The position numbers and the translations under genes are program-made. The notes beneath the pieces were generated by a model. That model did not search any database. It saw only the letters and a program-made list of their open reading frames with translations, and was not told where the DNA came from. A stretch of 64,000 nt of DNA from Psilocybe cubensis. Its lineage: Eukaryota. Each line of letters starts with the position of its first letter. The stretch's first letter is position 1. Shown in pieces: positions 7,923 through 61,494 of this stretch. The stretch spans positions 1,922,001 to 1,986,000 of the forward strand of contig CM039009.1 in the NCBI GenBank assembly GCA_017499595.2, given 5' to 3'.

Positions 7923-9547
7923 GGAGGGGGACGGGGACAGGGACGGGGGTAAGGATGAGGATGGGGATGGGGATGGAGGAAAGGAACGAGCTAGTTGTTA
8001 GTTGACGGACACGACGTCTTTCCGAATGTCAAATTCCAAATCGTTGATGTTGACGCGACGGCTGGCTTTACACTTCCGACTTTACACTCTCGACTTTTGA
8101 CTGGACTATATATAGATCCAGACTCTCACGCGCACGTCCAGAGCAAGCTGAAGCTAAAGTTTCGACAATTTCCACAGGCGCCGTAAACAGAAAATCCCTC
8201 GCGCGCTCAATATTCATTTCAATTGCTGTTTTGCTGTTTTATTGATATCGCTATCACTATCGCTTGTCCATCGTTTCCCTTGCATACTCTTGTACTTTAA
8301 ATTTACCTGCTCTGTTATACAGTATATTGTGACCTACTGAAAACTGTAAACCATAACGTTTAGATATCTGTCAGATCCGAGGCCAGACTCCGCCCTCCTC
8401 AATCCTGTGATCTTAACAACAACATGCAATCGTAACGGACATTATAACATCCCCAACACCGCAACTCAGTACTTCAGTACTCAAGTACTCGATCGCTGCA
8501 TTATTTCAATATTTCAAATTTTCAAATACCTCTCAGAGCTCAGAAGACACATCTCTTCGGCACTAAAACACCACCGACTTACCACCAGACCGCCCATATG
8601 CCCATAGGCCCATATACCTCATTCGATTTCAATACCCAAGTCCGCAAGTCCGCAAGTCCAAATCCCCAAGTCGCAAGAGGTCGCAAGTCACAAGTTGACG
8701 TCTCTACGTACACACGTGCGCAATTAACCCACGGGCGCCTTTCAAACTTAAAGCCGTCATTACGACTCATACTTACCCCATCTCCTCATTCACCCATCCC
8801 CCATCTCCTCATTCACACATCCCACATCCCTCCTCACACAACCCTCCAATCCAACAAGTACACAGCGAAATGACAGCCTCCTGCGTCTCGTCTCCATCGA
8901 TCCCCACCCACCCACCTTTCACATCACTACAGCACTAAAGCACTGCTTTTCCGGGCCCACTTAGACTCAGCGCCCAAAAGACCTCGAGGCGCTCGGTACA
9001 AGTAAATATGTCCAATGAGCGTATGAGTGTGGGAATGGATCGACTCTGCTAATTAATGTATTGGCGCCCAAATAGCCGAACTCAAACCGGGTCCAGGTTC
9101 AATATTCAATCTCCACGATGGAATCTTGAGTTGTGGATCTAGATATCGTAGGTTTGTATTGTAGCGGTAATGAAGCGGGCGTCCTGTACACCCTATAAAT
9201 GTAAATTGGGGGCAAATGTAAAAATTAATAAATTCAATTTTCGTTTCTATTCATTGAAGAATATAAGATCAAAGATGTGGTATACGATTGGAAAAGGAGA
9301 TCCCCTTTGAGCTAGATGGTTACTTGGATAACAGAAGCAAAGATTGAATCCAGATGTTTCAAACATCGAAGAGCGTATCTAAACAAAAGGAATTTAATCA
9401 CAAAATGGGCCAAAGTTACGAAAATCGTCAACTAAAGTGTTGAAAATATCGAGTTACTTGCAATTTTAGACTAACATGCGCGATATGTGTTCAGGAAGAC
9501 GACAGCGGATGAAGTCAAGTTGGCAGCAAGAGAATCCATCCTTGAAG

Positions 9548-9785
9548 AGGCACAAGTACCTGAGGTCATTAACAGATGTTGGACAGATCGCACAATGTGC
9601 TATCATAATCCAACATCGAGGAGACGCATCAGGATCCTTGTGCCTGTCAAGAATTAAGATGACTCTTGGTGCTCATCGGAAAGTGGGGAGAAACAGATAC
9701 AGCAGAGAATCTATCACTCAAGAGGCAAAAGGTACCTGAGGTCGTTAACAGATGTTACGCATGGCAGATTACCATGTCCAACGGT
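9548..9785 (-). ncRNA. Tandem pair of hairpin units (candidate milRNA precursors); second unit lacks its outer complementary arm
   Basis: Near-invariant arm GTACCTGAGGTC(G/A)TTAACAGATGTT; stems AGGCACAAG/CTTGTGCCT, CCTGA/TCAGG and GATGTTGGA/TCCAACATC; homologous to 18965-19247. Confidence 0.5.
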
Positions 9786-13014: not shown

Positions 13015-13549
13015 GGTGGTGACCAGCTAGCTCGCGCATGTCATTAATTTAAAGGTAGAGATTACAGCGGCGGTGCAGCCTGCAGGCAGCAAACATCTAT
13101 TTCTGGACACAAATGCAAGTCCACCTGTATTGAAATCCACGAATTGCAGTGCCAAAGCTATTCATATCCCGCCCCACTTGCGCTCAACCATTTGTTGCGT
13201 GCATGTTTTTATGATGTCGGGACAGCCATGACTCTGACGAGAGGCAATGACTGACACGTATATTGAACGAGGCTTTTAAGAACGCATTAGAATCCCTTCA
13301 GCCTGGTAAATGACAGTCGATAGTCTGTCATTGGGAGGACCAACGTTCATAATCCGTGAAAAGCCGATGAAGGTAGAATCGACAGTATGAGGCGCATATA
13401 TTCTCAAGTCCCCACCCCAGTCTAAAACGAACTTGAATCAAATTTCTACTACGGAATGGATAGCATATAGTAACTCACCGCCAAAAATATCCAAATAACT
13501 ACTAGCACACCTTCTGACACTAAATCCGAAATGTTGGATCTTATTAATC

Positions 13550-16330
13550 AGTACTAAAATATATGCGTCGAAAACGCGTTGTATGATGATGATGAATAGA
13601 CATGCCTTAAGCGATTACGCCCGCCTTGGTGGTCCCACCGCCGTCCATATATTTATATTGAGCCAAAAGGTGCCTCATTCAAACTTGGAACAAGAAGCAG
13701 GGAATATTGGTATATCAGAGCTCAAAAGCGATCTCGGGTTCTAATACCAGCGAGGCCGTACACTGACGAATAGACAAATCTGAAGACATGAGGAGGATAT
13801 GAGTGAAACGAGTAGCATGGTTTTGAAGTGGAGTAGACATACATGAGATTTCGAGCGCATATACACATCTTAAAATGATGGCTGAAATCGAAGCTATGGT
13901 GGTGGCACAGAGGGAAGGAGGTCCAAATTCACAGAACCGCGTCGCGTCGGGTATTTATAGGCGTAGTGGCAAGATCAAGCAAGAACAAATATGGGTCCAT
14001 AGCCTATACCAAAACAGCAAACAAATATTAACTTGGAATGCCATCTCGCAACCGACTTACCAGAACGTATGTGATACTGTTCTGTAGATCCCCGAATAAT
14101 TGTCTTATTCAAAACTAAAGATCACACGGTTGTTCCGAATCAAATATGCATGGCATTAGTAGCCCAAAGCGAGTCCATCCGGACATGACAACAACGCGAT
14201 CTACTCTACAGGAACAAAATATCTTTGAAACCGAACAAATGTAATGAAAAGGTCCAATCACAGGGAAGGATAGAAATATTGTGATAGTGTTAATCGAGAC
14301 CAATATCCACTGTAATTGGGGTGTTTGGATCACGGAACTGTGGATTTGTGGAAGTTGAATGTTGAAGGATCAAGCTAAAAGCAAACGAAAACAAAGAAAA
14401 ATCTGAGCAAGTAAGTATTCGCGCTCTAATGGAATTCCAGAGTAAACTTACATAAAATAAAGAGGTCATACGCATCAGATCTCTTTGTCAATGTGACTCG
14501 GTGTTTGAAAGGGGTTGAGGGCTCCCTCGTATTATTATGGAACGGAAGGTGGTAGAGTGCTTCAATATTTGTGAAAAATTCGGACGGTGACTGGTTCGTT
14601 GCAATAGGAGGTTGGTAGTGGGCTTTAATATCGTGGTGGAAGAAGCGAGCAGAAGCCTTCACGAGTCCTGAATACCTAAAATTAGAGAGATACAAAGAAT
14701 GGGTTTGGAACTTACCAAAAAAGAGATCTTTCGACGCTAAGACCCGACGCATAACCGTAGTAGCTACTTCAATACTAAAACTAAATGAAAAGAATGAAAA
14801 CGGAAACGGAAACGAGAACACACTATAGAAATACAATGAGAGATCACCCTTTCGGAGCATATGATTTTTGGCGAGCGGACTCACATATGAGAGGGAATCA
14901 GGTACCCCAAGATCCGACTTGGCTCCAAATGGATGACGAATGGCAAATGGTTGAATAATTGGTGCTGATGCGCTGCCAGTGTGCATGTATTGCGGGGAAC
15001 ATGGCCAAAGTTGACGTGCGAGCCTTGCGAAGCAAAATTAGGCGGTAATGGGAAAGGGCGAGTTAAATTACCAGTCATGATCTTTCCAAAGCATGTCAGG
15101 GCAAAGAATATCTCGAGTGTATCGATTGCTAGAAGTATTGTATGTCAAAAGTAGAAAGACCGGTGGGTATACGAGACTCACTGAAGGTGCCCTTTCCAGA
15201 GGAGTGCTCATCCATATCCCATCCAAACATCGATACTATGGCATAAACACATAAGCAAAGATAATAAACCGAATTCGAGGAACGAAACGTGTTAAAGTAT
15301 TGCAATCAATGGTTTGCGGTGTCGTGTCGGGTGTCGTCCATGGCTAAGAAGGAAATAAATCAACCATATCAAACAACGAAAAGAAACAAACTAACCTCAC
15401 GCCAACTACCACTCGCCTAAGCCCGCCCAACACACAGGGTCCAAAGCAAGCTTTTATCAATCTCCACCCCTGCGATTCACGGTAGAAGCGACGATGTCCT
15501 GCAAGTCTACCGCTACTGCTTAGGGGGGTGGGCGAACCAACCAGCACTCCGTACCTCACCCCCTGGTTTCCACGACCCCCGATTTACAGGGGTGGCGGCG
15601 GGGGGGTGCCACACATCGAGCGGGTAGGGTCAAATTTCAGCTGCCCCGCATGTCCTAAGACAATCGCGCACTCCAGCCTGACACCAGCAGACTGAAGATA
15701 CGCGACCTGAATGGAGTGGTATACTTCTGTGCTGGGCTTCTTGACCGTTGTGTGTGGGCGAGCCTGCGTTGTGTGGGGTTGGTTAGTGGCTTTTAGGACG
15801 GTGAGACTGACGGTATTGGTCCAAGGCGGGATGGTATAATTGCTGTGAGGCGTTGTTAACAATGTTCTAACCTAGGCGAGATGGACTTACGCATGTGAGG
15901 AGTTGCCAAACCAAGGGCGGTGAAGATAGCTCAAGGCGGGGTGATGAAAGTGCTATCAAATGATTTTCTTAGCATGTTTGACAAAGGCGGGTTTACTTCA
16001 ACTTACTTTAGTTGAATACGAGCTATCACAAGTGGATATAACATCAAAGGAATCAGTTGAGCTCTTCGAAAATGTAAAGAGATGATGGCGGAAGAGAGTC
16101 AAGAGACGATGGAGGTTTCCATCCTGACCGTCAGCATTCTTATACCCATCCAGGTATGTTCTTGTTTGTTTTCAGCCTCCCTCGATCTCCTTTGTGTCAT
16201 CCGCCACACGCCCAAAAAGAGAAGTTTCATTTCCAAAAGCGGTTGTTTGTATGCCGTTAGTGCACGCGTGTAATTCGTGCACAATAGGCGGGGTAAATGC
16301 CGAGTTTTACACAGGCATATGAAATCATTT
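13550..16330 (-). repeat. Family R copy A: putative spliced, structured non-coding gene plus a downstream second promoter block
   Basis: Direct repeat of 19510-22200. Minus-strand TATA at ~16139-16144, then a series of 40-60 nt GT-AG introns; no long ORF. Confidence 0.8.
15396..15763 (-). ncRNA. 368-nt conserved structured exon of family R (copy A)
   Basis: Bounded by CAG| and |GTTAGT. Same length and near-identical at 21334-21701 and 47392-47759. Terminal stem GCTCGCCCACACACA/TGTGTGTTGGGCGGGC plus internal hairpins. Confidence 0.55.
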
Positions 16331-16399: not shown

Positions 16400-17823
16400 A
16401 TTCAAGGCTGGAGGTCACACAAAGATTCCAAATCAAACGTGTGTGGCATTAATAGCCCAAAACGTATCCTAATGGACGTGACAACAATGCAAAGTACTAC
16501 GAGGCATGACTATAATTCAAGGCAACTAAAATAATGAAAATCCTTTGCGAGGCAGAATGTAAAGGGTCGAATCGATGAGGAAATTAAAATCATAGTAAAA
16601 ATATATAAGTAATGGGGTATGACTTTCATTCCGGCCGATTTCTATTGTAAGTTGGTTGATTCGTTACGGAATATTGAAGGTGGAAACTGGGTTTATCTAA
16701 ATAAAAAAAAAGAAATAAGACTTGGCCAATTTAGTACAGACAATGGAAGAAACCAATAGGTTAGACGTACATAGAATACTGAGGTCAAATGCATCAGATC
16801 TCTTAACACTCGGTGTTTGAGAAGGCTCCAGGTGGCTCCACTGGTGGCTCGTCGATTTTGTGGTCAATAGAGCTTGATGTTGGCTGGTAGTACCGATTGA
16901 AAAAATCAAAGCGAATTAACTGTGGAGTTCTTGTGATGGTGTATGACGGAGGCAGGGATTGAAAAGTTGGTTCGGGTAGTTAAACAGAGTCCTGAATACC
17001 TGGCATATTAGATTGAGACATTAAATTAAGTCAGACCTAGAACTTGCCTGGAAAGAGATCTTTCGACGCAACGACCTGATGCGTAACCGTTACAACTACT
17101 TGAAAAATAAAAATAAAAAGAAGTAAAAAAAGAAAACAAAACACCTGATGGATATATAATGAGGTGATCGTCCTTTTAAAGGAAATTATAATCGGTGGGC
17201 GGACTCACAGGCAAAAGGGAACCAGATGCTCCAAGATCTGACGGGACTGCATATGGCTGCTCGATGGTAATTTGGCTTGTGACAAGGATTAAATCGTTGT
17301 CGTTGTGATGACAGGTGAAGGTGTGTATGTCTGATGGATAGCCTAGGAAAATGAGAAACGGAAGCCTTGCAAAAGAGAAATTAGACGGGTATGCCATTAT
17401 GCAAATGAACACACCAGTCGCGATTTTTCCAAAGAACGTTAGAGCAAAGATTGATCTCAAATATGTCGAGGATTTCTAAGACCACGCAATGTTACCAGTT
17501 GAAAGAGTGATGGAAATGCGAGACTCACTGAAGCGCTCTTTCTAAAAGGTGATAACCCATATCCTAACCAAACATTGATGCTATGGCACAAAATGGTAAG
17601 CAATTGCTACGCGTTGATCTCGAGGAACGAAAGATATTAAACGTATGCAAGCATTCGTGACATCGTGCTGGTTTTCAATGTCGAAGCGTCTTGTCCGATT
17701 GCCTAAGGACATGAAAAAATAAGTCAACCATATCAAACCATAGAAGGGACAGAGTGACATCACCCCAACCATCACTCGCCTAAGCCCGCCCAACAAACAG
17801 GGTCCAAAGCAAGCTTTAATCAA
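16400..17823 (-). repeat. Family R copy B (diverged, 5'-truncated inside the structured exon)
   Basis: Shares blocks GAGGTCAAATGCATCAGATCTC, GAGTCCTGAATACCT, AAAGAGATCTTTCGACGC, GAGACTCACTGAAG and CTCGCCTAAGCCCGCCCAAC with copies A, C and D; homology stops at ~17823. Confidence 0.8.
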
Positions 17824-18654
17824 GCACTGTACCACTGGTGACTTCGCCATCCCTAATTATTCTGAAGACCCGCTATTAATCCATTTTCGACAGTGTCCGG
17901 TTCCTGCAACACCCGAGAGAGTGCGCCTGTTTACGTTTTCTCTTTTCTGAATTATTCATTGACTTACATTTACACTTTGCAGCCGTGTTGAAGCGGGATG
18001 GAACCAATGTGGTGGTCGGCAGCAACTGTGCGGCTACCTCTGGAAGCTGGGTGTCGCCTTACGACAATGTGCCCACTAACCTGGCCAGCGACCTCGATAT
18101 TGTGCGATCCGTCCACCTGTCCCCTCTTATATCCTCATGTTAACTGACCATTGCTACGTTATTCTGATAGGATCACGTCGTTCCTTTGAAGGAAGCTTGG
18201 GTGTCGGGTGCCCGCACTTGGACCAACGCGCAGCGCGAGGCCTTTGCAAACGACCTCGTCCGCCCCCAGCTTATTGCTGTTACCGACTCGTATGTCTTGC
18301 TCTATACTAATTTATACTTTGGCTGACGATCTTCTTATTGCAGACTAAACCAGGCTAAGGGTGAGTAACGATGCGCCTCGGTACCTCTCTTTTCATTACC
18401 GATCACTGACGAGTTTCTTTTCTCTTATCGTTTGTTATCCTCGCCCGAACAGGTGATAAGGGTTAGTGCTAATCTCCATCGGATTTCGATATACCCATTG
18501 ACTTGATTTACCAGATCCCGCCGAGTGGATGGTCCCCCTCGCCAGCTACAGATGCACCTACGTCCGGGCCTGGATTCACGTTAAATACCACTACAAGCTC
18601 AGCGTCGACCAAGCTGAAAAGACCGCCTTAACGAATTACATAAACGCTTGCTAA
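17821..18654 (+). pseudogene. DUF1524 (HNH-like) secreted-nuclease family gene lacking its 5' end
   Basis: Spliced reading SGSCNTRET|VLKRDGTNV..WVSPYD..DLDI|DHVVPLKEAWVSGA..FANDLVRPQLIAVTDS|LNQAKG|DKD|PAEW..CTYVRAWIHVKYHYKLSVDQAEK..C*. No start codon or signal peptide; fused to R copy B. Confidence 0.8.
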
Positions 18655-18964
18655 ACGTCCACTAAACCTGTTTCTGCATTAAATGTATTTTAATATTCAT
18701 AGACTTAAGCAACCACATTGTTACGATCCATAAAGTTATATATATCAGTTACGGCCATTTCTCAGCGCAATTTGAAGCGTTGGAAATTTTCTTCTGAGAT
18801 TGTTAAAGCTGCTTTGAATCGAGAAAAAGCCTCTAATTCTTTTCCAATTCCCTCAAAGGAGATAGATTGTTTAAATTACGACAACGTGGTTTCTGTTGTA
18901 ATGGAAACGCATACGTAGAGTCTTACTAAAAAGTGAGAAGCCAACCAAAGATCCGTACCTCGAG

Positions 18965-19247
18965 AGGCGAAAAGTACCTGAGGTCGTTAACAGATGTTGG
19001 ACGCAATTTTACAGCGGGGTGTTATCACTTCCCAACATCAAGAACGCGCCAGGAGCCCTTTCGCCTAGCGGAAAGTAAGATCTGCATGATTGCGTAAGGG
19101 AGAATGAAGAGACCAATGCAACCGATGAACCGATATCCACTCTCGAGAGGCAAAAAGTACCTGAGGTCGTTAACAGATGTTACATATTATAGCATGGAAA
19201 GGTGCTATCACGTTTCAACATCAAGAACGCGTCAGGATCCTTTTGCC
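18965..19247 (-). ncRNA. Tandem pair of complete hairpin units (candidate milRNA precursors)
   Basis: Units 18965-19066 and 19149-19247 share an identical arm AAGTACCTGAGGTCGTTAACAGATGTT. Basal stems covary (GGCGAAA/TTTCGCC vs GGCAAAA/TTTTGCC); loops differ. Confidence 0.55.
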
Positions 19248-19509
19248 ACCCAGAGATAAGATAACAGGCGTTCTGGGAAGCATGAAGGGGCGAGACCAAT
19301 GCTGGCGAGCCGAGATGCCGGAATTCAAAGTGTGGCAAGTCTTTTGATCTCAGCAGAGATGAAAGTGAAATCGACGGAGTATGGGGCGCATATAGCCAGG
19401 TCCCTAGTCAGAAGTGGATAGCATATACTCACCACCAGATACATTCCACTGACTACTCGGTCACCGCCAATATTGTGAAGCGCCATCTGAGAATGCTGGA
19501 GAAAAATGA

Positions 19510-22200
19510 ATAAGTTGAATATATGCGTCGAAACAGCATTGGAATATTGAAAAGACACCTCTTAAGTGAGAAAGACTATCTTGATAGTCACTTTAACTGT
19601 CCAAATTTTGAGCTAGCAAGGAGACAGGGGGGATACCGAATGTGAAGGCACGAAGAGGAGGTGAGTGAAACGCCTTGTAAAGCGGAAAGAGGAGTAGACA
19701 AACAAGAGTTTTGAGGCGCATATAGCCACTTGAGACGTTGGCGGAAGTAGAGGTGATGGTGGTGGTAGAGGGGAAAGGAGGTTTGAATTCACAAAAACGC
19801 ATCGCGTCGGGTATTTATAGGCACGGTGGCAAGGTCAAGCAAGAACAAATATGGGTCCATAGAGGCCAAACAGCAAATAAATAATGACATGGAATGACAC
19901 CGAAGGACATGGAATGACGATTCGTAACGACTCGTTAAGCCCTAACCAGCATAAGAGCGATAGTGTGCTTTCAAGTCCCCACTTATCCTCTCTTATCGAA
20001 ATTGAAGGTCACACGACTATTCCGAATCAAATATGTATGACATTAATTGCCCAAAGCGAGTCCATCCGGACATGACAACAACGCGATCTACTCTACAAAG
20101 CCAAAAAGCTGTATAAAACCGATTAAAAGTAACTAAAAGGGCCCATCACAGGGCAGAATAGAAGGTCAAATAAACGAGAAGGTATTGAAATATGAGTGTT
20201 GTGTTGATGATTGTAATCGATATTAATATCTCGGGTTGGGGTTAATCTCGAAACTGTGATTGTGGATGTCGAAAGCAGGTTTCTAGCTAAATTAAAGGAA
20301 GAAAAAAACCTGGGCAAGTTAGTATCCGCGCTCTAATGGAATTACGGAGTAAACTCACATAAAATAAGAAGGTCATACGCATCAGATCTCTTTGTGACTC
20401 GGTGTTTGAACAGGCGTAAGGGCTCCCTCAGATCGTGGAATGAAAGGCAATAGTGCGCTTCAATTTAGGTGAATAATTCTGACTTTGCCCGGTTCTTTGC
20501 AATTGGAGTTTGGTAACAGGCTTGAATATCGTGGTGGATAAAGCGAGCGAAAGCCTTTAGAGTGCTTTGCATGTGAACTGGTAGACAAATAGTGAGGTTT
20601 CACGAGTCCTGAACACCTAAAATTAGAGAGGGACGAAGAATAGGCTTGGAACTTACCAAAAAAGTGATCTTTCGACGCAAAGACCTGACGCATAACCGTA
20701 GTCGCTACTTCAATACTAAAACTAAATGAAAAGAATGAAAACAAAAACGGAAACGAGAACAAGCTATAGAAATACAATGAGAGATCACCCTTTCGGAGCA
20801 TATGATATTTGGCGAGCGGACTCACATATGAAAAGAAACCAGATGCCCCAAGATCCGACTTGGCTCCAAATGGCTGACGAATGGCAATATTTGAATAATT
20901 GTTCCTGATGCGCTGCCAGTGTGCATGTATTGCAGATAACAGCCAAATTTGACGTGCAAGCCTTGCGAAACAAAATTAGGCGGTAATGGGAGAGGGCGAG
21001 TTAAATTACCAGTCATGATCTTTCCAAAGCATGTCAGGGCAAAGAATATCTCGAGTATATCGATTGCTAGAAATATTGCATGTCAAAAGTAGAAAGACCG
21101 GTGGGTATACGAGACTCACTGAAGGCGCCCTTTCCAGAGGAGTGCTCATCCGTATCCCAACGAAACATCGATACTATGGCATAGACTGGTAAGCAAGGTT
21201 ATTGCGCCGAATTTGAGGAACGAAACGTGTTAAAGTATTGCAGTCAATGGTTTGTGGTATCGTGTTGGTTGTCGTCCATGGCTAAGAAGGAAATAAATCA
21301 ACCATATCAAACAACGAAAAGAAACAAACTAACCTCACGCCAACCACCGCTCGCCTAAGCCCGCCCAACACACAGGGTCCAAAGCAAGCTTTTATCAATC
21401 TCCACCCCTGCGATTCACGGTAGAAGCGACGATGTCCTGCAAGTCTACCGCTACTGCTTAGGGGGGTGGGCGAACCAACCAGCACTCCGTACCTCACCCC
21501 CTGGTTTCCACGACCCCTGATTTACAGGGGTGGCGGCGGGGGGGTGCCACACATCGAGCGGGTAGGGTCAAATTTCAACTGCCCCGCATGTCCTAAGACA
21601 ATCGCGCACACCAGCCTGACACCAGCAGACTGGCAATACGCGACCTGAATGGAGTGGTATACTTCTGTGCTGGGCTTCTTGACCGTTGTGTGTGGGCGAG
21701 CCTGCGTTGTGTGGGGTTGGTTAGTGGCTTTTAGGACGGTGAGACTGACGGTATTGGTCCAAGGCGGGATGGTATAATTGCTGTGAGGCGTTGTTAACAA
21801 TGTTCTAACCTAGGCGAGATGGACTTACGCATGTGAGGAGTTGCCAAACCAAGGGCGGTGAAGATAGCTCAAGGCGGGGTGATGAAAGTGCTATCAAATG
21901 ATTTTCTTAGCATGTTTGACAAAGGCGGGTTTACTTCAACTTACTTTAGTTGAATACGAGCTATCACAAGTGGATATAACATCAAAGGAATCAGTTGAGC
22001 TCTTCGAAAATGTAAAGAGATGATGGCGGAAGAGAGTCAAGAGACGATGGAGGTCTCTCGTTCGACCGTCCCATTATTATAGTCTTTTAGGGTATGTTCC
22101 TGTTTGTTTTCAGCCTCCTTCGATCCCGATCTCAGTCATGTCATCCGCCTGTGGACAAAACGAGGAATCTGGTTTCTAAATGCGATTCTTTGTGTGTCTG
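19510..22200 (-). repeat. Family R copy C (close paralog of copy A; core exon 21334-21701)
   Basis: Near-identical to 15340-16110 at offset 5938; more diverged on either side. Confidence 0.85.
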
Positions 22201-27871: not shown

Positions 27872-27900
27872 CAGCCTTACCTGCTACCTGAACCCATCAC

Positions 27901-28428
27901 ATACTGGAAACTGCCAGGTGGGCAGTATATATCTAGCCTGGCAGTTTCCAGTTGCCACATTTGATGCATTCGCCGCGTCTGAGCACGTGCTGGGCAGCTG
28001 CACCAAACAATGCGTCAATACGCATGCCGGCCGTTCGGAATAGCGTTGCTCGTCGTTGGGGCCGCCGTTCGGGCTGAAAAAAATACGGGTCGGTAGCCAG
28101 CAGCGCCTAGAATGCGGCGGCGTTGTTTGCGCAGGGTTCGGGGGTGGTGGCGGGATGGATTGGTCGGGGTGGGTTTGGATGACGCGGGGGAATTAAATGC
28201 GCGCCTTCCCGATTGGGATGTTCGCGGGTGCAGTAGCCGTGTGCCCACCGCCCTTGCTGGTCTGGACCGCACACAGCCTCCTGATGATCACTCATCAGTG
28301 ATGCAAGTATATTTTTAGACGCAATCTCGGCCCACCCCTGCCCACCCTGGTCTGGGCCTGGCACTGCCTCTGATGATCATTCATCAGTGATGCAGGCGTA
28401 TTTTTAGACGCGATGGATGGTTCCTGTC
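27901..28428 (+). repeat. Left inner TIR of the KDZ element
   Basis: Reverse complement of 46541-47052, near-identical apart from a ~17-bp indel and a few substitutions. Confidence 0.95.
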
Positions 28429-38900: not shown

Positions 38901-39267
38901 GATAATCCGCCGACAGAGCAGTCAACGCACGCCGAAGACATTGTCCTGTGGCTTCCATCAATGGTACCCGCAGAATGCAGAGAAACTATCTGTGTGGCCG
39001 GCTTGGCTGATGTCGAACAGAAGCTGCGGATGGCGCATATGACCGACTCTTTGAATGCAATACGGCAGATTCTCAAAATCAAGTCACGAATGATTGAATT
39101 CAAAAATAAAAACATACGAGGACAACGTGGGGGAACCAGGTCAACGTCAGTTATCGACCGCGTGCATGAGCGTGCACGATTTGCAGCAGGAAAATATCGT
39201 GCAGCTCGGAAAGCTTATTTCGAGTTGGCAGGACCTGGTAACTGGGAGCAGAATTACCGTATACTTG

Positions 39268-39715
39268 TGTCAGGGCAACACTATAATCAGTGTGACAAGG
39301 CCACCAACAAAGATTAAGCAAGAGAGAGAGAGAGAGCAGAGGGAGAGTAAGAGAGCAAAGAGAGAATAAGAGAGTGAGATAGATTCAATGGTTCTAAGAG
39401 ATCACACCAATGATAGTGGATATCCTAAGAGATTGAAGCTGAAGCTACAGCTACCTACAAGTCCAGTATTTATACTCTACAGCTATTCTAGAATATTCCC
39501 TACATTACATCATAAAGGAAGGTTAAAGAATAAAAGTGACATCATATAGAAAAAGGATGAGTAAGACTAGGAATCATATAGAATTTACTAGAAAGAAGTG
39601 GACCAAGAAGGCTGTGATGAAAGAAATAAACTATCTAATCAGATAATTGATAAGATAATGAAAGGATAAGATAATTCTGTGAAGATAAAGAGGGAAAACT
39701 GGAGAAACCCTGACA
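39268..39715 (-). repeat. 3' LTR
   Basis: TGTCAGGG..CCCTGACA; same sequence as 45196-45643. Confidence 0.95.
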
Positions 39716-42700
39716 TCACCCCCTCTCTAAGGCACATTTTCCACAATGTGCACATGGATGGGTTAGTTTAGAGGGTTTAAGAAGAGGAGGAGGTTCAGTA
39801 AAGTTAATAATAGGAGTGAAAGAAAGTCTATCAAAGGTCACAGCAGAAATCCTTCTAGGTGCTGAAGGATGTTTGGCATGGAAGTCCTTGATAGCCTTAG
39901 AAGCATTTTTCAAATGCTCTGCAGGCTCCCAAGTGCATTCTTCATTAGGATAGTTCTTCCATTTGACCAAATATTGAAGTTTGTTTCTAAAAAGTCTGCT
40001 GTCCTTGATAAATTCAACTTCCCACTCAGGATTTTCTCCTTGAATGACAGGAGGTGGTCTAGAAGGAGGCTTTCTTCCTACAATATCTGGGTGATAAGGT
40101 AGAAGTTTAACCACATTGAACACTGGATGGATTTTCATGGTAGATGGCAGCTTAAGCTCATAGGCATTAGGGCTAATAACTTTGGTAATTTTGTAAGGCC
40201 CATATCTTTTATCATCCAATTTCTTGGAGGGCCTATCAGTTTTGAGGTCCTTGCCATCCAACCATACCAAATCCCCAACTTTATACTGAGTTGGAGTACC
40301 TCTGTGTCTATTATAGAATTTAGCCATATCATCAGCAGCTTTTCTAAGTGCAGACTCTGCTTCTTTCCTGGCTTCTTCCATATTTTTCACAAAGGTATCC
40401 ACAGTGTCCATTTTACTATCTCTAAGGGGTTCAGTGCCCATTCTGGGATGTCTGCCATTATTGAGCATGAATGGTGTCTGCCTGGTTGAAGCCTGAACTC
40501 TATTGTTATAAGAGAATTCAGCTAGAGCTAACCATTCAACCCAATCATCTTGTCTATGGTTTATAAAGAGTCTAAGATACTGCTCAATTTCTTGGTTAAC
40601 TCTTTCAGTCTGACCATCAGTTTGGGGATGGTAGGCTGTAGATGAGGCTGTCTGGATACCAAGTATTGAGTTGAGTTCTTTCATAAACCTTGAGACAAAC
40701 TGTGGACCTCTATCACACAGAATTTTAATGGGTAAGCCATGGTGTTTCCAGACATAATCTCTGTATAGTCTGGCTGTCCCTTCAGAAGTGACTTCATCTG
40801 TAGTAGGGATAATGTGGATCATTTTACTAAGTCTATCCACAACCACCATAATGGCATTATACCCTTGACATTCTGGTAACCCCATAATAAAGTCCACAGA
40901 GATGCATTGCCAGACATCAGAGGGAATCTCAGTAGGAATTAAAAGGCCAAGAGGTTTGGCTGGAAAGGTTTTGGTTCTGTTGCATCTATCACAACCTCTG
41001 GTATAGGCTGCAATAAAATGTGACATTCCTGGCCACCAATAATTCCTAGAGACTAGCTCAATTGTCTTCCATTTCCCTGGATGTCCAGCAATGAAGGCAT
41101 CATGGTGCAGTTCCACAATCTTTCTTCTAAGATCTTTGTCCTTGGGAACATACACCTTCCCCCTGTAGAGAATAAGGCCTTGTTCTTCTGACCATTCCTG
41201 TCCTTCAATCTTCTTGGTAGAAGATTTCTTGAGCTCCTGAACTGCCTTGACCACCTTTTCATCCATCTCCTTAGCTTCTCTAATCTTCTTAAGAAGATCA
41301 TTTTCTGCACCAGTAATGGTAGCATGACCCTGCTTGAGAGCCTGGATTTTAAAGTAGGAAGGTTTGAGGAGAACTACATTTTGGTTATCATTCTCTCCCT
41401 TTTTATGATCTGGTCTCCTAGACAAAGCATCTGGCTTAAGAGATCTTTTACCAGGCCTATGATGAAGAGTAAAATCAAATCTGGACAGGAAGAGTGACCA
41501 TCTGGCTTGCCTTCTGCTGAGCTTTTGGGCAACCATAAAGTACTCTAAGTTTTTGTGGTCTGTCCAAATCTCAAAGGAATGTTGGGTTCCTTCAAGATAA
41601 TGTCTCCATTCATCTAGTGCTCTGATAATAGCCAGCATCTCTTTGTCATGGATCTCATAATTCCTTTCTACTTCAGATAGACTCTTAGACATAAAGGCTA
41701 CAGGATGCCATTTCCCATCTGATCCTTCCTGAGATAAAACAGCCCCAGTAGCATAATCTGAACTGTCTGCTTCAACTTTATATGGCTTGTTATCATCAGG
41801 GAAAATCAAGACAGGTGAAGAAGTGACTTTCTTCTTTAACTGGTCAAAGGCTTCCTGCTGTCTAAGACTCCATCTCCAGACTGTTCCTTTCTTTGTCAAT
41901 TCATGAAGGGGCTTAGCAATGTCTGCAAAATCCTCTATGAACCTTCTATAAAAATTAACAAATCCCAAGAATGATTGGACATCCTTGACATTTTCAGGTT
42001 CAGGCCATTTAGAAACTCCCTCTACCTTGACAGGATCCATCTCAATCCTGCCTTGTGAAATGATTAGTCCAAGATATTCAATCTTTTCCTTTTCAAATTC
42101 ACATTTCTCTGCTTTAAGGTAGAGTTTGTTCTGTTCTAAGATTTGCAGAACTTGCTTGACTACCTCTCTATGATGATCAAGAGTCTCAGTGAAAATTAAA
42201 ATGTCATCCATGTAGACAATGACAACATTTCCATCAATGAGCTCAATAAAGATATCATTCATCATAGTTTGGAAGGTAGCAGGACTATTGGTTAAACCAA
42301 AGAACATGACCAATGGTTCAAACAGCCCTCTATTGGTTCTAAAGGCTGCTTTCCATTCATCTCCCTTTTTGATTCTGACATTGTTAAATCCCCACCTAAC
42401 ATCAAGTTTGGTGAAGTATTTGGCTTTGCTGAGTTTGGTGATGATGTCAGAAATCAATGGAAGGGGGTAGGAGTTCTTGATGGTCATTTCATTCAGTTTT
42501 CTATAGTCCTGGACAAGCCTAAGAGATCCATCCTTCTTCTTGACAAAGAATACAGGGGAGGCCATAGGTGACTTGGAGGGTCTAATCCTGCCAGACTTCA
42601 GATTTTCCTCTAAAAAGGCATCAAGTTCCTTTTGTTCATTGGGAGAAAGAGGATAAATCTTGGATCTGTAAGGTTCAGAACCAGGTTTCAGCTCAATAGC

Positions 42701-43603
42701 ATGATCCCAAGGCTTTCTGTCTGGTAGCCTATCAAAAGATTCCTTTGAAAAAACACCTTTAAACTGATGATAGTGCTTAGGAACAGTTTCTTCAAAGGTT
42801 TTTTTAGGGGAATCAGCTTGCTGATGAGACTCTTCTGCTAATCTTTGAGACATAGTAGAAGTAGCATTAATAGACTGCTTCTGAGGATGAAGGTATGAGA
42901 TAAAAATTCTATCCTCAGGCTCAATCTCAGAATCAGAAGAATCTTCAATAGAATCATCTTCTTCTTCATCAAATTGAGGGAGTTTCCTCCTTTTGACTGC
43001 AGCTATTTTCTGCCTCTTTCTTCTGGCTCTTTTGGCTTCCATTTGGCAGTCAGAGGGACATCTAATAAACTGGACATCCCCTGTCTTCCAATCAACATCT
43101 GGATTATGGTGCCAAAGCCAAGTATGTCCAATGATAGCAGATTTGTCTCCCAAGTCACAAACAGCAAAGGTGGCCCTTTCTGTATGGTTTTTGTGTACCA
43201 TAATTAAGTCTACTTCCTCATGGATAGAGCCACTCTTGTTGAGAGTACCATCAACATTATAGACTGGAATGGCTCTAGAAAGTTTCCTTGTGTTGAGATT
43301 ATGATACTTCACAAAACCAGAATGCAGAAAGAGGCCAGTAGCTCCAGAATCAAGCAAAGCATCAACAGATAACCTTTTCTCTGTGTCCATTGTCTTTAAG
43401 ATGACAGACAAATGGGTAGAGGTTTTAGGATTATGGTTGAGGATGTAGATCTTTTCAGGGAAGGTAGAAAGAGAGGAAGAAGAAGACATGATTTCTGCAC
43501 CAGAATCTGAAGACTGAGGATCAAGTCTGTCAATTTCATTTTCTAGTACATTAAATCTATTCCATTGGGACATGTCTTTCACCAATGGTGCTTCTAAAAA
43601 TTT
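39716..43603 (-). CDS. pol: Pol polyprotein: protease, RT, RNase H, integrase, chromodomain
   Basis: LLDSGAT; YMDD; HH-CC zinc finger (HHDAFIAGH..CDRC); integrase core; chromodomain WEVEFI..QYLVKWKNY..TWEP; entered by -1 frameshift. Confidence 0.97.
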   Translation of the reverse strand, partial: KFLEAPLVKDMSQWNRFNVLENEIDRLDPQSSDSGAEIMSSSSSLSTFPEKIYILNHNPKTSTHLSVILKTMDTEKRLSVDALLDSGATGLFLHSGFVKYHNLNTRKLSRAIPVYNVDGTLNKSGSIHEEVDLIMVHKNHTERATFAVCDLGDKSAIIGHTWLWHHNPDVDWKTGDVQFIRCPSDCQMEAKRARRKRQKIAAVKRRKLPQFDEEEDDSIEDSSDSEIEPEDRIFISYLHPQKQSINATSTMSQRLAEESHQQADSPKKTFEETVPKHYHQFKGVFSKESFDRLPDRKPWDHAIELKPGSEPYRSKIYPLSPNEQKELDAFLEENLKSGRIRPSKSPMASPVFFVKKKDGSLRLVQDYRKLNEMTIKNSYPLPLISDIITKLSKAKYFTKLDVRWGFNNVRIKKGDEWKAAFRTNRGLFEPLVMFFGLTNSPATFQTMMNDIFIELIDGNVVIVYMDDILIFTETLDHHREVVKQVLQILEQNKLYLKAEKCEFEKEKIEYLGLIISQGRIEMDPVKVEGVSKWPEPENVKDVQSFLGFVNFYRRFIEDFADIAKPLHELTKKGTVWRWSLRQQEAFDQLKKKVTSSPVLIFPDDNKPYKVEADSSDYATGAVLSQEGSDGKWHPVAFMSKSLSEVERNYEIHDKEMLAIIRALDEWRHYLEGTQHSFEIWTDHKNLEYFMVAQKLSRRQARWSLFLSRFDFTLHHRPGKRSLKPDALSRRPDHKKGENDNQNVVLLKPSYFKIQALKQGHATITGAENDLLKKIREAKEMDEKVVKAVQELKKSSTKKIEGQEWSEEQGLILYRGKVYVPKDKDLRRKIVELHHDAFIAGHPGKWKTIELVSRNYWWPGMSHFIAAYTRGCDRCNRTKTFPAKPLGLLIPTEIPSDVWQCISVDFIMGLPECQGYNAIMVVVDRLSKMIHIIPTTDEVTSEGTARLYRDYVWKHHGLPIKILCDRGPQFVSRFMKELNSILGIQTASSTAYHPQTDGQTERVNQEIEQYLRLFINHRQDDWVEWLALAEFSYNNRVQASTRQTPFMLNNGRHPRMGTEPLRDSKMDTVDTFVKNMEEARKEAESALRKAADDMAKFYNRHRGTPTQYKVGDLVWLDGKDLKTDRPSKKLDDKRYGPYKITKVISPNAYELKLPSTMKIHPVFNVVKLLPYHPDIVGRKPPSRPPPVIQGENPEWEVEFIKDSRLFRNKLQYLVKWKNYPNEECTWEPAEHLKNASKAIKDFHAKHPSAPRRISAVTFDRLSFTPIINFTEPPPLLKPSKLTHPCAHCGKCALERG

Positions 43604-44703
43604 TTCTTTTCCTCATCTTTCTGCTCCTTGCCTTCCAAGATTAATTTCCCAAAGTAGTCAGCCAGTTCTTCATGGGTCATAGCATTGATGTTAACTGATG
43701 ACCTGCAGTTTACAGCCTTATGACCAGGCTTTCTGCACTTGAAGCAAACAATTGGCCTAACTGACTTCCATCCAGAGTCAACCTCCATGGGAACTACATC
43801 TGGTTGCTTTGCCTGAGCACCAAAGGTCCTAGAGCTGCTATTGGAAAAGACTGGAGGATTTGGAGTAGGCTTAGGAACAGCCTTGGGAGTTGGGGCTTTA
43901 AGGAAGGGAGAAGAAGAGGAGGAGGAAAGAGACTTGGTAAAGGCCTCACTCTGTCTCCACTGCCTATCTAGCCTGGTACTCCATTTAATCCATCCATCCA
44001 AGGTTTTGGGCATGTCAGGAACATAGTAGACTGCATTCCTGAGATTTTCATTAAGCCCAGCCTTGAATTGGTCTACCAAAGCAGCATCATTATACCCAGT
44101 ATCTGAGATCAGAGCCCTGAAGCTAGCAACATACTCATCAGCAGTCTGTCTGCCTTGCTTGAGCATGTGCATTTTATGCTTAGCTGTGTTGGAGGGGTCT
44201 GGATCTGCAAACACTTCCCTAAATTCATAAACAAAGTCAGCCCAAAGACCTTCTTGGGACTGAGCATTGTCTATTACTTTAGTCTTCTCATATGCCCACT
44301 TCCCAGCAGTACCTCCTTTCATATGAGATAGAGCACAAATAACTTTCTGAAAGTCATCTGTAATCCCTTTCCCATAGAAATATAATTTAAGCTGACTGAG
44401 GAAGTTTTCTGCCTTCTCCATAGAACCATCAAATGGATCTGGAGGTGAGACTTTAATGACAGAGTGTGAACAGGAAGGGGCAATATGAGGGGTAGGGAAA
44501 GAGTGAATATCTAGAGCAGCAGGTGGTGGTGGTGGTGGTGGTGATGGTGACTGACTGACTGGTTGCTGAGGGTGTGGTGGAGTGGATGATGACTGCTGCT
44601 GCTGTCTAAGAAAATTCAACTCTTGGGTAAGGAGCTGGACCTGATGCATGAGCTCTTCCACAGAAGGAGTGGTGGGAGGCAATTGGGAGGGGTCCATGTC
44701 CAT
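43594..44703 (-). CDS. gag: Gag with CCHC zinc knuckle
   Basis: PDPFDG, LKQGRQTADEYVASF, PMEVD, CFKCRKPGHKAVNC. Confidence 0.93.
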   Translation of the reverse strand: MDMDPSQLPPTTPSVEELMHQVQLLTQELNFLRQQQQSSSTPPHPQQPVSQSPSPPPPPPPAALDIHSFPTPHIAPSCSHSVIKVSPPDPFDGSMEKAENFLSQLKLYFYGKGITDDFQKVICALSHMKGGTAGKWAYEKTKVIDNAQSQEGLWADFVYEFREVFADPDPSNTAKHKMHMLKQGRQTADEYVASFRALISDTGYNDAALVDQFKAGLNENLRNAVYYVPDMPKTLDGWIKWSTRLDRQWRQSEAFTKSLSSSSSSPFLKAPTPKAVPKPTPNPPVFSNSSSRTFGAQAKQPDVVPMEVDSGWKSVRPIVCFKCRKPGHKAVNCRSSVNINAMTHEELADYFGKLILEGKEQKDEEKKNF

Positions 44704-45195
44704 GGGTAGGGGTAGGTAGGCTCTCTGATGTGTGTGTGGGAGAAGCTATCTACTGAAAGTGCCCTTGAAACTATACTAAGTATTCTAAAAAAAATATCTA
44801 TCTACTGGATACCCAGTTGTCACACCACTCAGGGCTCTAAACCTAGGATCACAGGGTTACTGGATATTTCCTAGACCACCAAAAACAGAACACTAGTAGG
44901 ACTGTGTCTGCCCCAACAGTTGGTATCCCTATCTACTAAGTTTACACACAGCACACAACAGAGAGTAGGAAAGATGATGAGCCAAAGATCTTGAGGAAAG
45001 GTCTTGAGGAGGATGTTGAAGATTGGTGGAGATGTAGAGATTGGTAAGAAGATTGGTGAAGAGGTTGATGAAGAGGTTGGTGGGTTGGAAGTGGAGGAAG
45101 AAGGTTGAGGTAATGGTGTTGAAGAGGTTGAAGAGGTGAAGAGTTTGGTGTTGAAAGAGAGATGGTGGAGTTGTCTTGAGAGAGCTTCAATCTTC

Positions 45196-45643
45196 TGTCA
45201 GGGCAACACTATAATCAGTGTGACAAGGCCACCAACAAAGATTAAGCAAGAGAGAGAGAGAGAGCAGAGGGAGAGTAAGAGAGCAAAGAGAGAATAAGAG
45301 AGTGAGATAGATTCAATGGTTCTAAGAGATCACACCAATGATAGTGGATATCCTAAGAGATTGAAGCTGAAGCTACAGCTACCTACAAGTCCAGTATTTA
45401 TACTCTACAGCTATTCTAGAATATTCCCTACATTACATCATAAAGGAAGGTTAAAGAATAAAAGTGACATCATATAGAAAAAGGATGAGTAAGACTAGGA
45501 ATCATATAGAATTTACTAGAAAGAAGTGGACCAAGAAGGCTGTGATGAAAGAAATAAACTATCTAATCAGATAATTGATAAGATAATGAAAGGATAAGAT
45601 AATTCTGTGAAGATAAAGAGGGAAAACTGGAGAAACCCTGACA
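45196..45643 (-). repeat. 5' LTR (minus-strand TATAAATA at ~45395-45402)
   Basis: Same sequence as 39268-39715; followed on the minus strand by a PBS complementary to the LTR itself. Confidence 0.95.
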
Positions 45644-46540: not shown

Positions 46541-47052
46541 GACAGGAACCATCCATCGCGTCTAAAAATACGCCTGCATCAGAGGCAGTGCCAGGCCCAG
46601 ACCAGGGTGGGCAGGGGTGGGCCGAGATTGCGTCTAAAAATATACTTGCATCACTGATGAGTGATCATCAGGAGGCTGTGCGCGGTCCAGACCAGCAAGG
46701 GCGGTGTGGCACACGGCTACTGCACCCGCGAACATCCCAATCGGGAAGGCGCGCATTTAATTCCCCCGCGTCATCCAAACCCACCCCGACCAATCCATCC
46801 CGCCACCACCCCCGAACCCTGCGCAAACAACGCCGCCGCATTCTAGGCGCTGCTGGCTACCGACCCGTATTTTTTTCAGCCCGAACGGCGGCCCCAACGA
46901 CGAGCAACGCTATTCCGAACGGCCGGCATGCGTATTGACGCATTGTTTGGTGCAGCTGCCCAGCACGTGCTCAGACGCGGCGAATGCATCAAATGTGGCA
47001 ACTGGAAACTGCCAGGCTAGATATATACTGCCCACCTGGCAGTTTCCAGTAT
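46541..47052 (-). repeat. Right inner TIR of the KDZ element
   Basis: Reverse complement of 27901-28428. Confidence 0.95.
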
Positions 47053-47081
47053 ATGATACATCAGGACAGCAGGTAGAGGTG

Positions 47082-48960
47082 ATTTTGGAAGAGTTTCCCT
47101 AAATCCTTTGACGATTTATCTACTTGTGATATCTCTTACTCAAGTAACGTAAGTTAGACTTAATTCGCCCTTGTCAAACATTCTAAGAACATCATTGGAA
47201 AGCACTTTCATCACCCCGCCTTGAGCTATCATCACCGCTCTTGGTTTGGCAACTCCTCACATGCGTAAGTCCATCTTGCCTAGGTTAGAACATTGTTAAC
47301 AACGCCTCACAGCAATTATACCATCCCGCCTTGAACCAATACCGTCAGTATCATCGTCCTAAAAGCCACTAACCAACCCCACACAACGCAGGCTCGCCCA
47401 CACACAATGGTCAAGAAGCCCAGCACAGAAGTATACCACTCCATTCAGGTCGCGTATTGCCAGTCTGCTGGTGTCAGGCTGGTGTGCGCGATTGTCTTAG
47501 GACATGCGGGGCAGTTGACATTTGACCCTACCCGCTCGATGTGTGGCACCCCCCCGCCGCCACCCCTGTAAATCGGGGGTCGTGGAAACCAGGGGGTGAG
47601 GTACGGAGTGCTGGTTGGTTCGCCCACCCCCCTAAGCAGTAGCGGTAGACTTGCAGGACATCGTCGCTTCTACCGTGAATCGCAGGGGTGGAGATTGATA
47701 AAAGCTTGCTTTGGACCCTGTGTGTTGGGCGGGCTTAGGCGAGTGATGGTTGGCGTGAGGTCAGTTTGCTTCTTTTCGTTGTTTGATACGGTTTATTTAT
47801 TTATTCCTAGCCTCGGGCGATAACCAGCACGATGCTGCAAACCATTGATCGCAATACAATAACACGTTTTGTTCCTCGAGATCAACGCGTCCCAATTGCT
47901 TACCATTTTGTGCCATAGCATCAATGTTTGGTTGGACATGGGTCATCATCTTACAGAAAGAGCGCTTCAGTGAGTTTCGTACTTCCATCAGTCTTTGCAC
48001 TGGTAACATTATGTAGATTTAGAAACCCTCGACATATTCGAGATCAATCTTTGCTCTGTCTTTCTTTGGAAAGATCATGACTGGTGTGTTCAGTTACATC
48101 CTCCCACAACCGTCTAATTTCGTTCGTGTAAGGCTCGCATTTCTCATTTTCCCATCAAACATAAACACCGGCACTCGCAATTCCAACGACATGGACGAGG
48201 TCCTTGTCGCAAGTCACACCATCGCCGCGCAGCCACTTGTAGTCACGTCAGATCTTGGGGCATCTGGTTCCCTTTTACTTGTGAGTCCGTTCCCTGAGAT
48301 TATCATTTCTTCTAAAGGACAATCACCTCATTATGTATCCATCAGGTGTTTTTTCTTTTTTTATTTCGTTTTTATTTTATTTTTGAAGTAGTTGTAACGT
48401 TACGCACCAGGTCGTTGCGTCGAAAGATCTCTTTCTAGGGAAGTTCCAGGTCTACTTTGATTGAATGCCTCATTCTAATATGCCAGGTATTCAGGACTCG
48501 GTTTAACCACGCGAACCTCAGTGTAATCCCCAACTCCGGCATACACTGTCACACAAGAACTTTGCAGTTATAATCCGCCCTACAATTCTTCTAATCCGTA
48601 CAACCTGTCAACATCAGGCTCTTTCAAACACAAAAGGCAATAAACTACAACTGGAGCCGCCTCTAGCTTTATAAAACACCAAGTCTCAAAAGATCTAATG
48701 CGTCTGACCTTCTCATTTTATGTACGTTGATACGCAGTGCAGCTTGCTAACCACGGAAATCGCGCGCACCAAGTCCACTTTCCCACGCTTCACATGATCG
48801 CGGAACATCAATACACCACCGACATCGCCCACCGACACCGATATTCCTCGCTCCCGATTCAATTACTCATTTATTTCTCATCACCATTCCATTTTGTATG
48901 CGTCTTCGTAATATTTTAACAAATTTTCTTCATTTTAAAACCTGAATTTCATATACAGCA
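47082..48960 (+). repeat. Family R copy D, 3' part (core exon 47392-47759)
   Basis: Inverted relative to A, B and C; core near-identical to A/C, downstream exons closer to copy B. Confidence 0.85.
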
Positions 48961-49716
48961 CAGCTTTCATTTTACCCACACTTTCCGAGTAGACACAATA
49001 GGCGCCCGATTTCGCACCCTTGCCGTTTCCTCCCCATCCGAGAAAATTTTACAATTTAATTAATCTACTTCTTCTGTAGACTTACTCATAGTGTCTTGGC
49101 CTCCATATTTCGTGTTCGCTTCGCTTATCTCTTTACAAACTTTGTTTTACACACACACCCCAGCTCAGTAGTATAAAAACTAGCTAGAAAATTATCTACA
49201 CAATAACACATCGTTCACCTCTCGTTTCCATCGTGCTCTCATCGTTTTCAGCTGGTTAAGAAGACCAGGGAAACCCTCTCGCACCCTCAGACGCCTCTCA
49301 TAGCGGTTCTCCAGTTGCTTTTACTTGTTTACTCTTTTTTTGTTTGCTCGACGCACCTAGGACGCCGCTGGCACATCATTTTTGGAGCCCACCGCGAGGG
49401 TGTTTCAAACATTGAGCCTTCAACCAGCCGTTCGCTTCGACAGCTTCCGTCTAGAACCCTTCGTCAAGAACTAGTTGCTGCCTTCCAAAACCCAGAAAAC
49501 CTTTCAGACGAATCACTATTCATTGAAGTACCCGAAAATCAAGCCACTCATTCGTATCTACCATCTCCAACATCACCTCTATTCTCTCCATCTGAACTCC
49601 CTTCCCCTATATCCGGATCCTTTGAATTTCCAACCACAACACACTCGCATATCAGTCCTTTCATTCTAACACCTTCTCCAACCTCAAACACCCTTCAACT
49701 CCCATTGCAACAGTTT

Positions 49717-54692: not shown

Positions 54693-54917
54693 CATCAGCA
54701 ATACCGGGGCCAAGTAGGTAATGATCCGTAGTGATACGTAATTCTGTAGTGCCCATAGTAACGGTCCCATTTGGGTAACACACACTGATGTACCTGTAGC
54801 TTGGTACCAACGTGACATGGTACTCTGTAGTGATCTGTATTGTAACGCGAGTGCTGTGTAGCGGCGTGTAGCATGCTTACCATGGTCCATACCCCTCTGT
54901 ATACAACTGACATACAA

Positions 54918-61293: not shown

Positions 61294-61494
61294 GAAACAC
61301 GCTATTTCCGGAGCGATTCTTTAGGGTAGGTTTCCCGTCCTGAAGTCACGAGTTGGTTAAAAAAACGCCCCCTTACATCAGCCGCATCACCGTCACGGTG
61401 ATGCGGCTGATGTAAGGGGGCGTTTTTTTAACCAACTCGTGACTTCAGGACGGGAAACCTACCCTAAAGAATCGCTCCGGAAATAGCGTGTTTC
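61294..61494. repeat. Perfect palindrome: 100-bp arms, 1-nt spacer at 61394
   Basis: 61294-61393 is the exact reverse complement of 61395-61494; imperfect extension to ~61258/61530. Confidence 0.95.

Follow-up and report, generated by a model that had tools for sequence, protein, structure and literature searches.

What kind of element is formed by tandem hairpins in a mushroom genome when one 25-nt arm of each is kept almost letter for letter while the sequence around it drifts? We addressed this question for two loci of Psilocybe cubensis, at 9.5 kb (locus 1) and 19 kb (locus 2) of a 64-kb stretch of DNA (hereafter, the window), for which the sequence-only reading had proposed a polycistronic cluster of precursors of microRNA-like RNAs (milRNAs), with an H/ACA-like guide or a protein-binding hairpin as the alternative. 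Fungal milRNAs are mostly called from stacks of reads on foldable sequence and show little conservation, and for the latter reason it is disputed that fungi possess microRNA genes of the sort known from plants and animals. To our knowledge, fungi have no established canonical microRNA pathway.

The arm itself, GTACCTGAGGTCGTTAACAGATGTT on the plus strand, occurs four times in the window, exactly at 9732, 18974 and 19157 and with one mismatch at 9556; the count expected by chance is zero, and none of 100 dinucleotide shuffles contained any match to it. They are grouped into two arrays, each with two units, that lie 9.2-9.4 kb apart, with a unit period of 183 nt at locus 2 and 176 nt at locus 1. 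By sensitive BLAST, homology between the loci is limited to the array (9534-9758 against 18951-19183, 71% identity), and the two loci are paralogous two-unit tandem arrays. Identity between units is 96-100% in the arm, 76-91% in the opposite arm, 54-69% in the apical part, 58-64% in the spacer and 53-73% in the left flank, and, whichever two units are compared, the block of identity keeps to the same 25-nt limits. The initial description of the arrays, as units spaced by about 180 nt that share an arm of about 25 nt, invariant but for one base, while their loops and spacers diverge, is therefore accurate. In run X5, which comes from a related organism, k-mer depth puts the arm at about 3-4 copies per genome (arm-only unitigs at 44-47, single-copy contigs at 12.5-14.1). 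Coordinates are collected in Table 1.

Table 1. Positions in the window of the hairpin units, their shared elements and the host transcript.
Feature	Positions	Strand	Details
Hairpin unit u19157, extended	19123-19278 (core 19149-19247)	minus	MFE -53.9 kcal/mol, z -5.06, 0/200 shuffles as good
Hairpin unit u18974, extended	18940-19095 (core 18966-19065)	minus	MFE -57.1 kcal/mol, z -4.16, 0/200 shuffles as good
Hairpin unit u9556, extended	9523-9672 (core 9549-9644)	minus	MFE -66.9 kcal/mol, z -6.98, 0/200 shuffles as good
Unit u9732	9724-9779	minus	Arm 9732-9756 exact, partner arm lost, no hairpin
Decayed fifth unit	13240-13305 (approximate)	minus	Left flank and partner arm recognisable, invariant arm destroyed
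Invariant 25-nt arm (3' arm of the minus-strand hairpin)	18974-18998	minus	Also 19157-19181, 9732-9756 and 9556-9580 (one change)
Conserved spacer motif GAGACCAATGC	19292-19302		From alignments; also 19109-19119, degenerate at locus 1
Part of host transcript in a probable cDNA contig	19196-19642	minus	355 nt, depth 28, run X11 (RNA nature presumed)
Probable 63-nt intron of the host transcript	19496-19558	minus	CT..AC on plus, GT..AG on minus; GTGTCT...CCAG

Three of the four units fold. In forms of about 110 nt they do so on either strand (z -3.7 to -7.0, MFE -35.4 to -47.0 kcal/mol), and with 30-nt flanks each intact unit becomes a single minus-strand hairpin of about 150 nt with 54-57 pairs, so that the size of about 100 nt first given to the hairpins suits the short versions but falls short of the full structure. 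Below the arm, 26-29 bases are paired in the lower stems, though the flanking sequences from which these are built share only 53-73% identity; internal loops do not exceed 4 nt and are conserved across the intact units, and an apical motif, GCTATCA on the plus strand, is kept in all three of them as well as in a loose end from X5. A covariance model scores u19157, u18974 and u9556 at 112, 108.6 and 94.4 bits on the minus strand, and u9732 at 12.2 bits (E 1.2). The proposal of tandem hairpins thus stands for three units, and to speak of four overstates the case because u9732 forms no hairpin, its fold having a z of +1.5 on the plus strand and -1.1 on the minus strand.

Across the window, the covariance model returned the three intact units, u9732 weakly, a palindrome at 61355-61433 and nothing else. 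This palindrome, unrelated to the units in sequence, spans about 79 nt as a near-perfect inverted repeat whose arms are about 38 nt each, and scores 23.5 and 21.6 bits on its two strands.

The strand on which these structures would act can be read from the folds. The minus strand folds more stably than the plus strand in all three units, by 5.9, 9.7 and 3.9 kcal/mol, and contains 8, 6 and 3 G.U pairs compared to 4, 1 and 1 on the plus strand. The sole substitution within the arm makes a G.U pair on minus and an A.C mismatch on plus, and the plus-strand A.C mismatches mentioned in the sequence-only reading were correctly recognized there as G.U pairs on minus. Variants from two related organisms fall outside the stems: contigs of run X5 on 18600-19600 carry 18 listed differences, with none in the stems (129 nt) and seven in the apical parts (70 nt), and run X10 carries ten differences on 19162-19312, again with none in stems and seven in apical sequence. 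When introduced into u19157, the variants stabilise the minus fold, from -35.4 to -41.1 (X5) and -42.1 (X10) kcal/mol, whereas the plus fold moves from -33.9 to -31.9 (X5) and -33.5 (X10) kcal/mol; five of the six X5 changes in this unit are paired on minus, compared to two of the six on plus.

A contig of run X11, probably a cDNA, provides a link to transcription at locus 2. It covers 19196-19495 and 19559-19642 and skips the 63 nt between them, across which the X5 DNA contig is continuous; from its boundary letters, the skipped stretch probably reads as a normal short fungal intron on the minus strand. The spliced minus-strand sequence contains no open reading frame (ORF) longer than 69 aa. 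The contig enters hairpin u19157 and ends in its apical part, and since this end adjoins a position that varies between runs, it may be an assembly break and not the end of an RNA. Fold energies, the X5 and X10 variants and this contig with its GT..AG intron all favour transcription of the minus strand, as had been suggested, and we infer from the one contig of X11, a run presumed to be RNA, that the hairpin arrays are probably transcribed in that direction. Among the sequencing runs listed for this stretch, none is annotated as RNA. At 19403-19431 lies a hotspot of strain indels, where 29 nt are missing from X11, and where 19415-19420 is replaced in X5 by 28 different letters.

Covariation is found in the basal stem of 7-9 bp, which occurs in three paired versions, GGCGAAA/TTTCGCC, GGCAAAA/TTTTGCC and GGCACAA/TTGTGCC, exactly as originally described. 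Two double compensatory changes, one from G-C to A-U and the other from A-U to C-G, separate these versions, with no broken pair; RNAalifold counts only one of the two, because MAFFT shifts the register of the basal stem by one base. The comparison set consists of three paralogues and two close relatives, and counts over the paralogues are not independent, since these share ancestry. Alignment, together with a weak collinear homology between 13278-13900 and 19223-19760, additionally identifies the remains of a fifth unit. As this unit is of similar age and has lost its arm, the invariance of the arm elsewhere reflects constraint and not youth.

One could suppose that the units have no function at all, with arm identity left by recent gene conversion and hairpins that arose by chance from an inverted duplication long ago. 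There are, after all, only four or five copies, all within 10 kb. Gene conversion is, however, a poor fit, because the identical block shares its 25-nt limits in all pairs, at tandem and at 9.4-kb distances alike. Moreover, compensatory changes have kept the stems paired, both related organisms retain the arms unaltered while their apical parts have changed, and the decayed fifth unit displays what drift does to such a sequence. We therefore consider an absence of function very improbable. Judged from the compensatory and G.U-tolerant changes, selection keeps the fold, and keeps the 25-nt 3' arm far more strictly. The hairpin RNA family is real, non-random and selectively constrained; the class to which it belongs is putative.

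Several known classes were considered and rejected. An H/ACA snoRNA, and with it the H/ACA-like guide that had been offered as an alternative, is not supported, as the internal loops provide no pocket of the required size, no H box (ANANNA) or ACA box was found after the hairpins on reading the minus strand, and there is no Rfam match. For a box C/D snoRNA, CUGA-like and UGAUG-like words are present but stand in the wrong order on both strands, again with no Rfam match. A coding repeat was rejected on the grounds that no stop-free frame of at least 70 aa spans both units of either array and that the units lie in different frames. Over the whole window, Rfam 15 yielded no match at gathering thresholds and a tRNA scan yielded no genes, and no hammerhead core was found by eye. 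Permissive Rfam scans of both loci gave chance-level matches only, namely IMES-4 (E 4, outside the units), Xist_exon1 (E 4.3) and mir-753 (E 2.8), the last being the best weak match on a unit, at 16.7 bits where 62 are required.

Searches beyond the window were likewise negative. The exact 25-mer had no match in metagenome contigs; a 19-mer matched three loci, none with a hairpin context; and a 22-mer had no match in viral contigs or in prokaryote genomes. Strings of the arm sequence had no match in the text of the searchable articles, and no report of Psilocybe small RNAs was found among the literature matches listed.

The window is fungal, and a 1047-aa frame in it shares 100% identity with a protein that UniRef assigns to Psilocybe cubensis. 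The neighbourhood of the arrays contains other repeated sequences. One dispersed repeat, which reaches 2.4 kb in length and may be an LTR or a promoter-bearing element, is present at 13826-16187, 19687-22125, 16765-17823 and, in reverse, 47082-48727. Identity between two of its copies is 94.6% over 1.5 kb, and no ORF with a Pfam match was seen within it; one copy lies about 400 nt from locus 2 and another at a like distance from the decayed fifth unit. A Ty3/gypsy chromovirus occupies the minus strand at 39264-45643, with gag at 43594-44703 and a pol that includes a chromodomain at 39716-43585, and its insertion looks young because its 452-nt LTRs are 99.8% identical. A second gypsy-like element lies on the plus strand at 49315-54731, where a DUF4100 frame precedes RNase H and an integrase zinc domain; the window revealed no pair of LTRs belonging to this element. 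Fragments of the dispersed repeat also adjoin, in differing orientation, both members of a 0.5-kb inverted duplicate (27875-28375 and 46577-47079, 98% identity). Finally, a 93-nt tandem repeat of two copies with 95% identity is found at 63311-63498, within the open frame 63293-63922.

Given these surroundings, it is necessary to consider whether the units are elements of DNA and not of RNA, that is, remains of foldback or MITE-like transposons or part of the adjacent dispersed repeat, with the arm serving as a transposase or transcription factor site and complementarity maintained by palindrome correction. In support of this, each unit is an inverted repeat of about 150 nt, as in MITE- and foldback-derived hairpins, whose short inverted-repeat units also fold into long structures; repeats and Ty3/gypsy elements are abundant in the region; and the array was duplicated once together with the repeat at 19687-22125, since the decayed unit adjoins the repeat copy at 13826-16187. 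On the other hand, locus 1 has no repeat copy and two repeat copies have no array. MITE copies with target-site duplications, which the sequence-only reading had named as the finding that would speak against it, were not seen: the flanks, read by eye, show no direct repeat at the core or the extended base of the three hairpins, and the units are not dispersed, all four arms in the window lying in two tandem arrays with a fixed period and conserved spacers, and the arm having the low copy number estimated from X5. Correction at the level of DNA would also not be expected to produce G.U pairs biased to one strand or variant effects that are strand-specific, and it is this strand bias that makes DNA-level readings the weaker ones. 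An origin of this kind is improbable.

We propose instead, as the likeliest reading but a tentative one, that the arrays lie on a spliced non-coding RNA that carries tandem precursors of a microRNA-like small RNA derived from the 3' arm, with dicing, loading and target all being predicted steps. At locus 2, the array would be part of a spliced minus-strand RNA without a long reading frame. A Dicer-like enzyme would cut each hairpin, after which an Argonaute would take up a 21-25-nt product of the invariant 3' arm (as RNA, AACAUCUGUUAACGACCUCAGGUAC) and be guided by it to repress a target at another place in the genome. The whole would then be a polycistronic precursor that yields a single microRNA-like RNA and exists in three to four gene copies. 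We rate this function highest because the arm is invariant, its partner drifts yet remains paired, the apical part is free to change, several copies probably share one transcript and there is no ORF. Conservation across the units follows the order of mature sequence (96-100%), star (76-91%) and loop (54-69%) that typifies microRNAs. Two further grounds are that Agaricomycetes possess genes for RNA interference, with Dicer-like, Argonaute and RdRP genes recorded in one report (PMC10282164), and that the hairpins agree with the structural criteria for milRNAs of the agaricomycete Coprinopsis cinerea. According to the study of that species (PMC6145500), which additionally asks for at least four small-RNA reads on the stem, the structural criteria are a length of 51-150 nt with an MFE of -20 kcal/mol or lower, a stem of at least 18 bp enclosing the small RNA, and p < 0.01 against shuffled sequence; three of the four units have this size and energy, their stems contain 54-57 pairs, and in three units on the minus strand 0 of 200 shuffles folded as well.

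Other features fit the microRNA-like reading less well. A tight duplex of microRNA and star, with about five or fewer mismatched or bulged positions, is the rule in plants and animals, where annotation also calls for precise mature and star reads with 2-nt 3' overhangs and for dependence on Dicer and Argonaute. The minus-strand MFE structures leave 8 of the 25 arm bases without a partner in each of the three intact units, which makes the duplex too loose for the strict pairing rule. Of the cluster originally proposed, therefore, the tandem hairpins, the constrained arm, the covarying stems and the minus strand are retained, while the duplex is looser than that of a canonical microRNA. The reading is also weakened by u9732, which keeps its arm perfectly without a hairpin, and by the conservation of internal loops and of the apical motif, which would fit a protein-binding RNA as well. 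No complementary target is present in the window; apart from its own copies, the arm matches at no more than 17 of 25 positions anywhere on the two strands.

These same features raise the possibility, which we hold to be somewhat less likely than the microRNA-like reading, that the hairpin functions as a whole, as a structured RNA that is bound by a dsRNA-binding or sequence-specific protein or that carries a processing or localisation signal, with the arm and the internal loops as its recognition surface. Such an RNA would share the evidence of structure, strand and constraint and explains the data nearly as well as a microRNA-like precursor does. It would account for internal loops that have been conserved and not closed, for the unpaired arm bases, and for an apical motif that persists in every intact unit and in the loose end from X5. 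As a protein site, however, a perfectly kept run of 25 nt would be long, and such a run typifies guides that act by base pairing; retention of the arm by u9732 in the absence of a hairpin is awkward here, too, and no Rfam family matches.

Alternatively, the whole stem may be diced into mixed siRNAs, directed for instance at a transposon, so that no one mature species predominates, as would be the case at a long-hairpin siRNA locus. The length of the stems and the repeat-rich neighbourhood speak for this, and hpRNA loci that give rise to endo-siRNAs similarly produce long inverted-repeat transcripts that Dicer can use. Unlike at hpRNA loci, constraint in Psilocybe is concentrated in one 25-nt block and is not stem-wide, and dicing of the entire stem leaves unexplained why exactly 25 nt are invariant amid a drifting stem. 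Furthermore, the units have no similarity to any transposon within the window. We regard an siRNA locus of this type as quite improbable.

If the hairpins are precursors of a microRNA-like RNA, how do they compare with systems already described? Several hairpins per transcript with the same mature sequence are a feature of tandem microRNA families in plants and animals, and long stems are a feature of long plant precursors such as miR159/319. The Psilocybe arrays resemble such polycistronic microRNAs in having several hairpins, long stems and a mature arm that is better conserved than the star arm, which in turn is better conserved than the loop; they differ in their looser duplex and in that processing is only predicted. 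The Coprinopsis cinerea study offers a closer parallel, with 22 milRNAs predicted in an agaricomycete from hairpins of 51-150 nt that, like those described here, lie between genes and do not code for protein, and with six candidates close together on one contig, comparable to the clustering in Psilocybe (PMC6145500). The differences are that Coprinopsis milRNAs were defined by small-RNA reads while the Psilocybe hairpins are known from sequence, and that, in the same study, Coprinopsis milRNAs are described as nearly unconserved, with one Laccaria homologue, whereas the Psilocybe arm has been kept through two duplications and in relatives (PMC6145500).

It is possible, though less likely than not, that the locus represents a multi-copy microRNA gene family under selective constraint in a mushroom-forming fungus, carried on a spliced non-coding RNA, whose arm has been preserved through tandem and segmental duplication. 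If this were true, it would be the first small-RNA gene in fungi with the evolutionary signature that defines the microRNAs of plants and animals. Since the evolution of the hairpin family already displays constraint on the fold and on one arm, a single small-RNA library could test the locus. Should the arm yield no small RNA, the locus would still mark an RNA of Psilocybe that is structured, conserved and so far unclassified.
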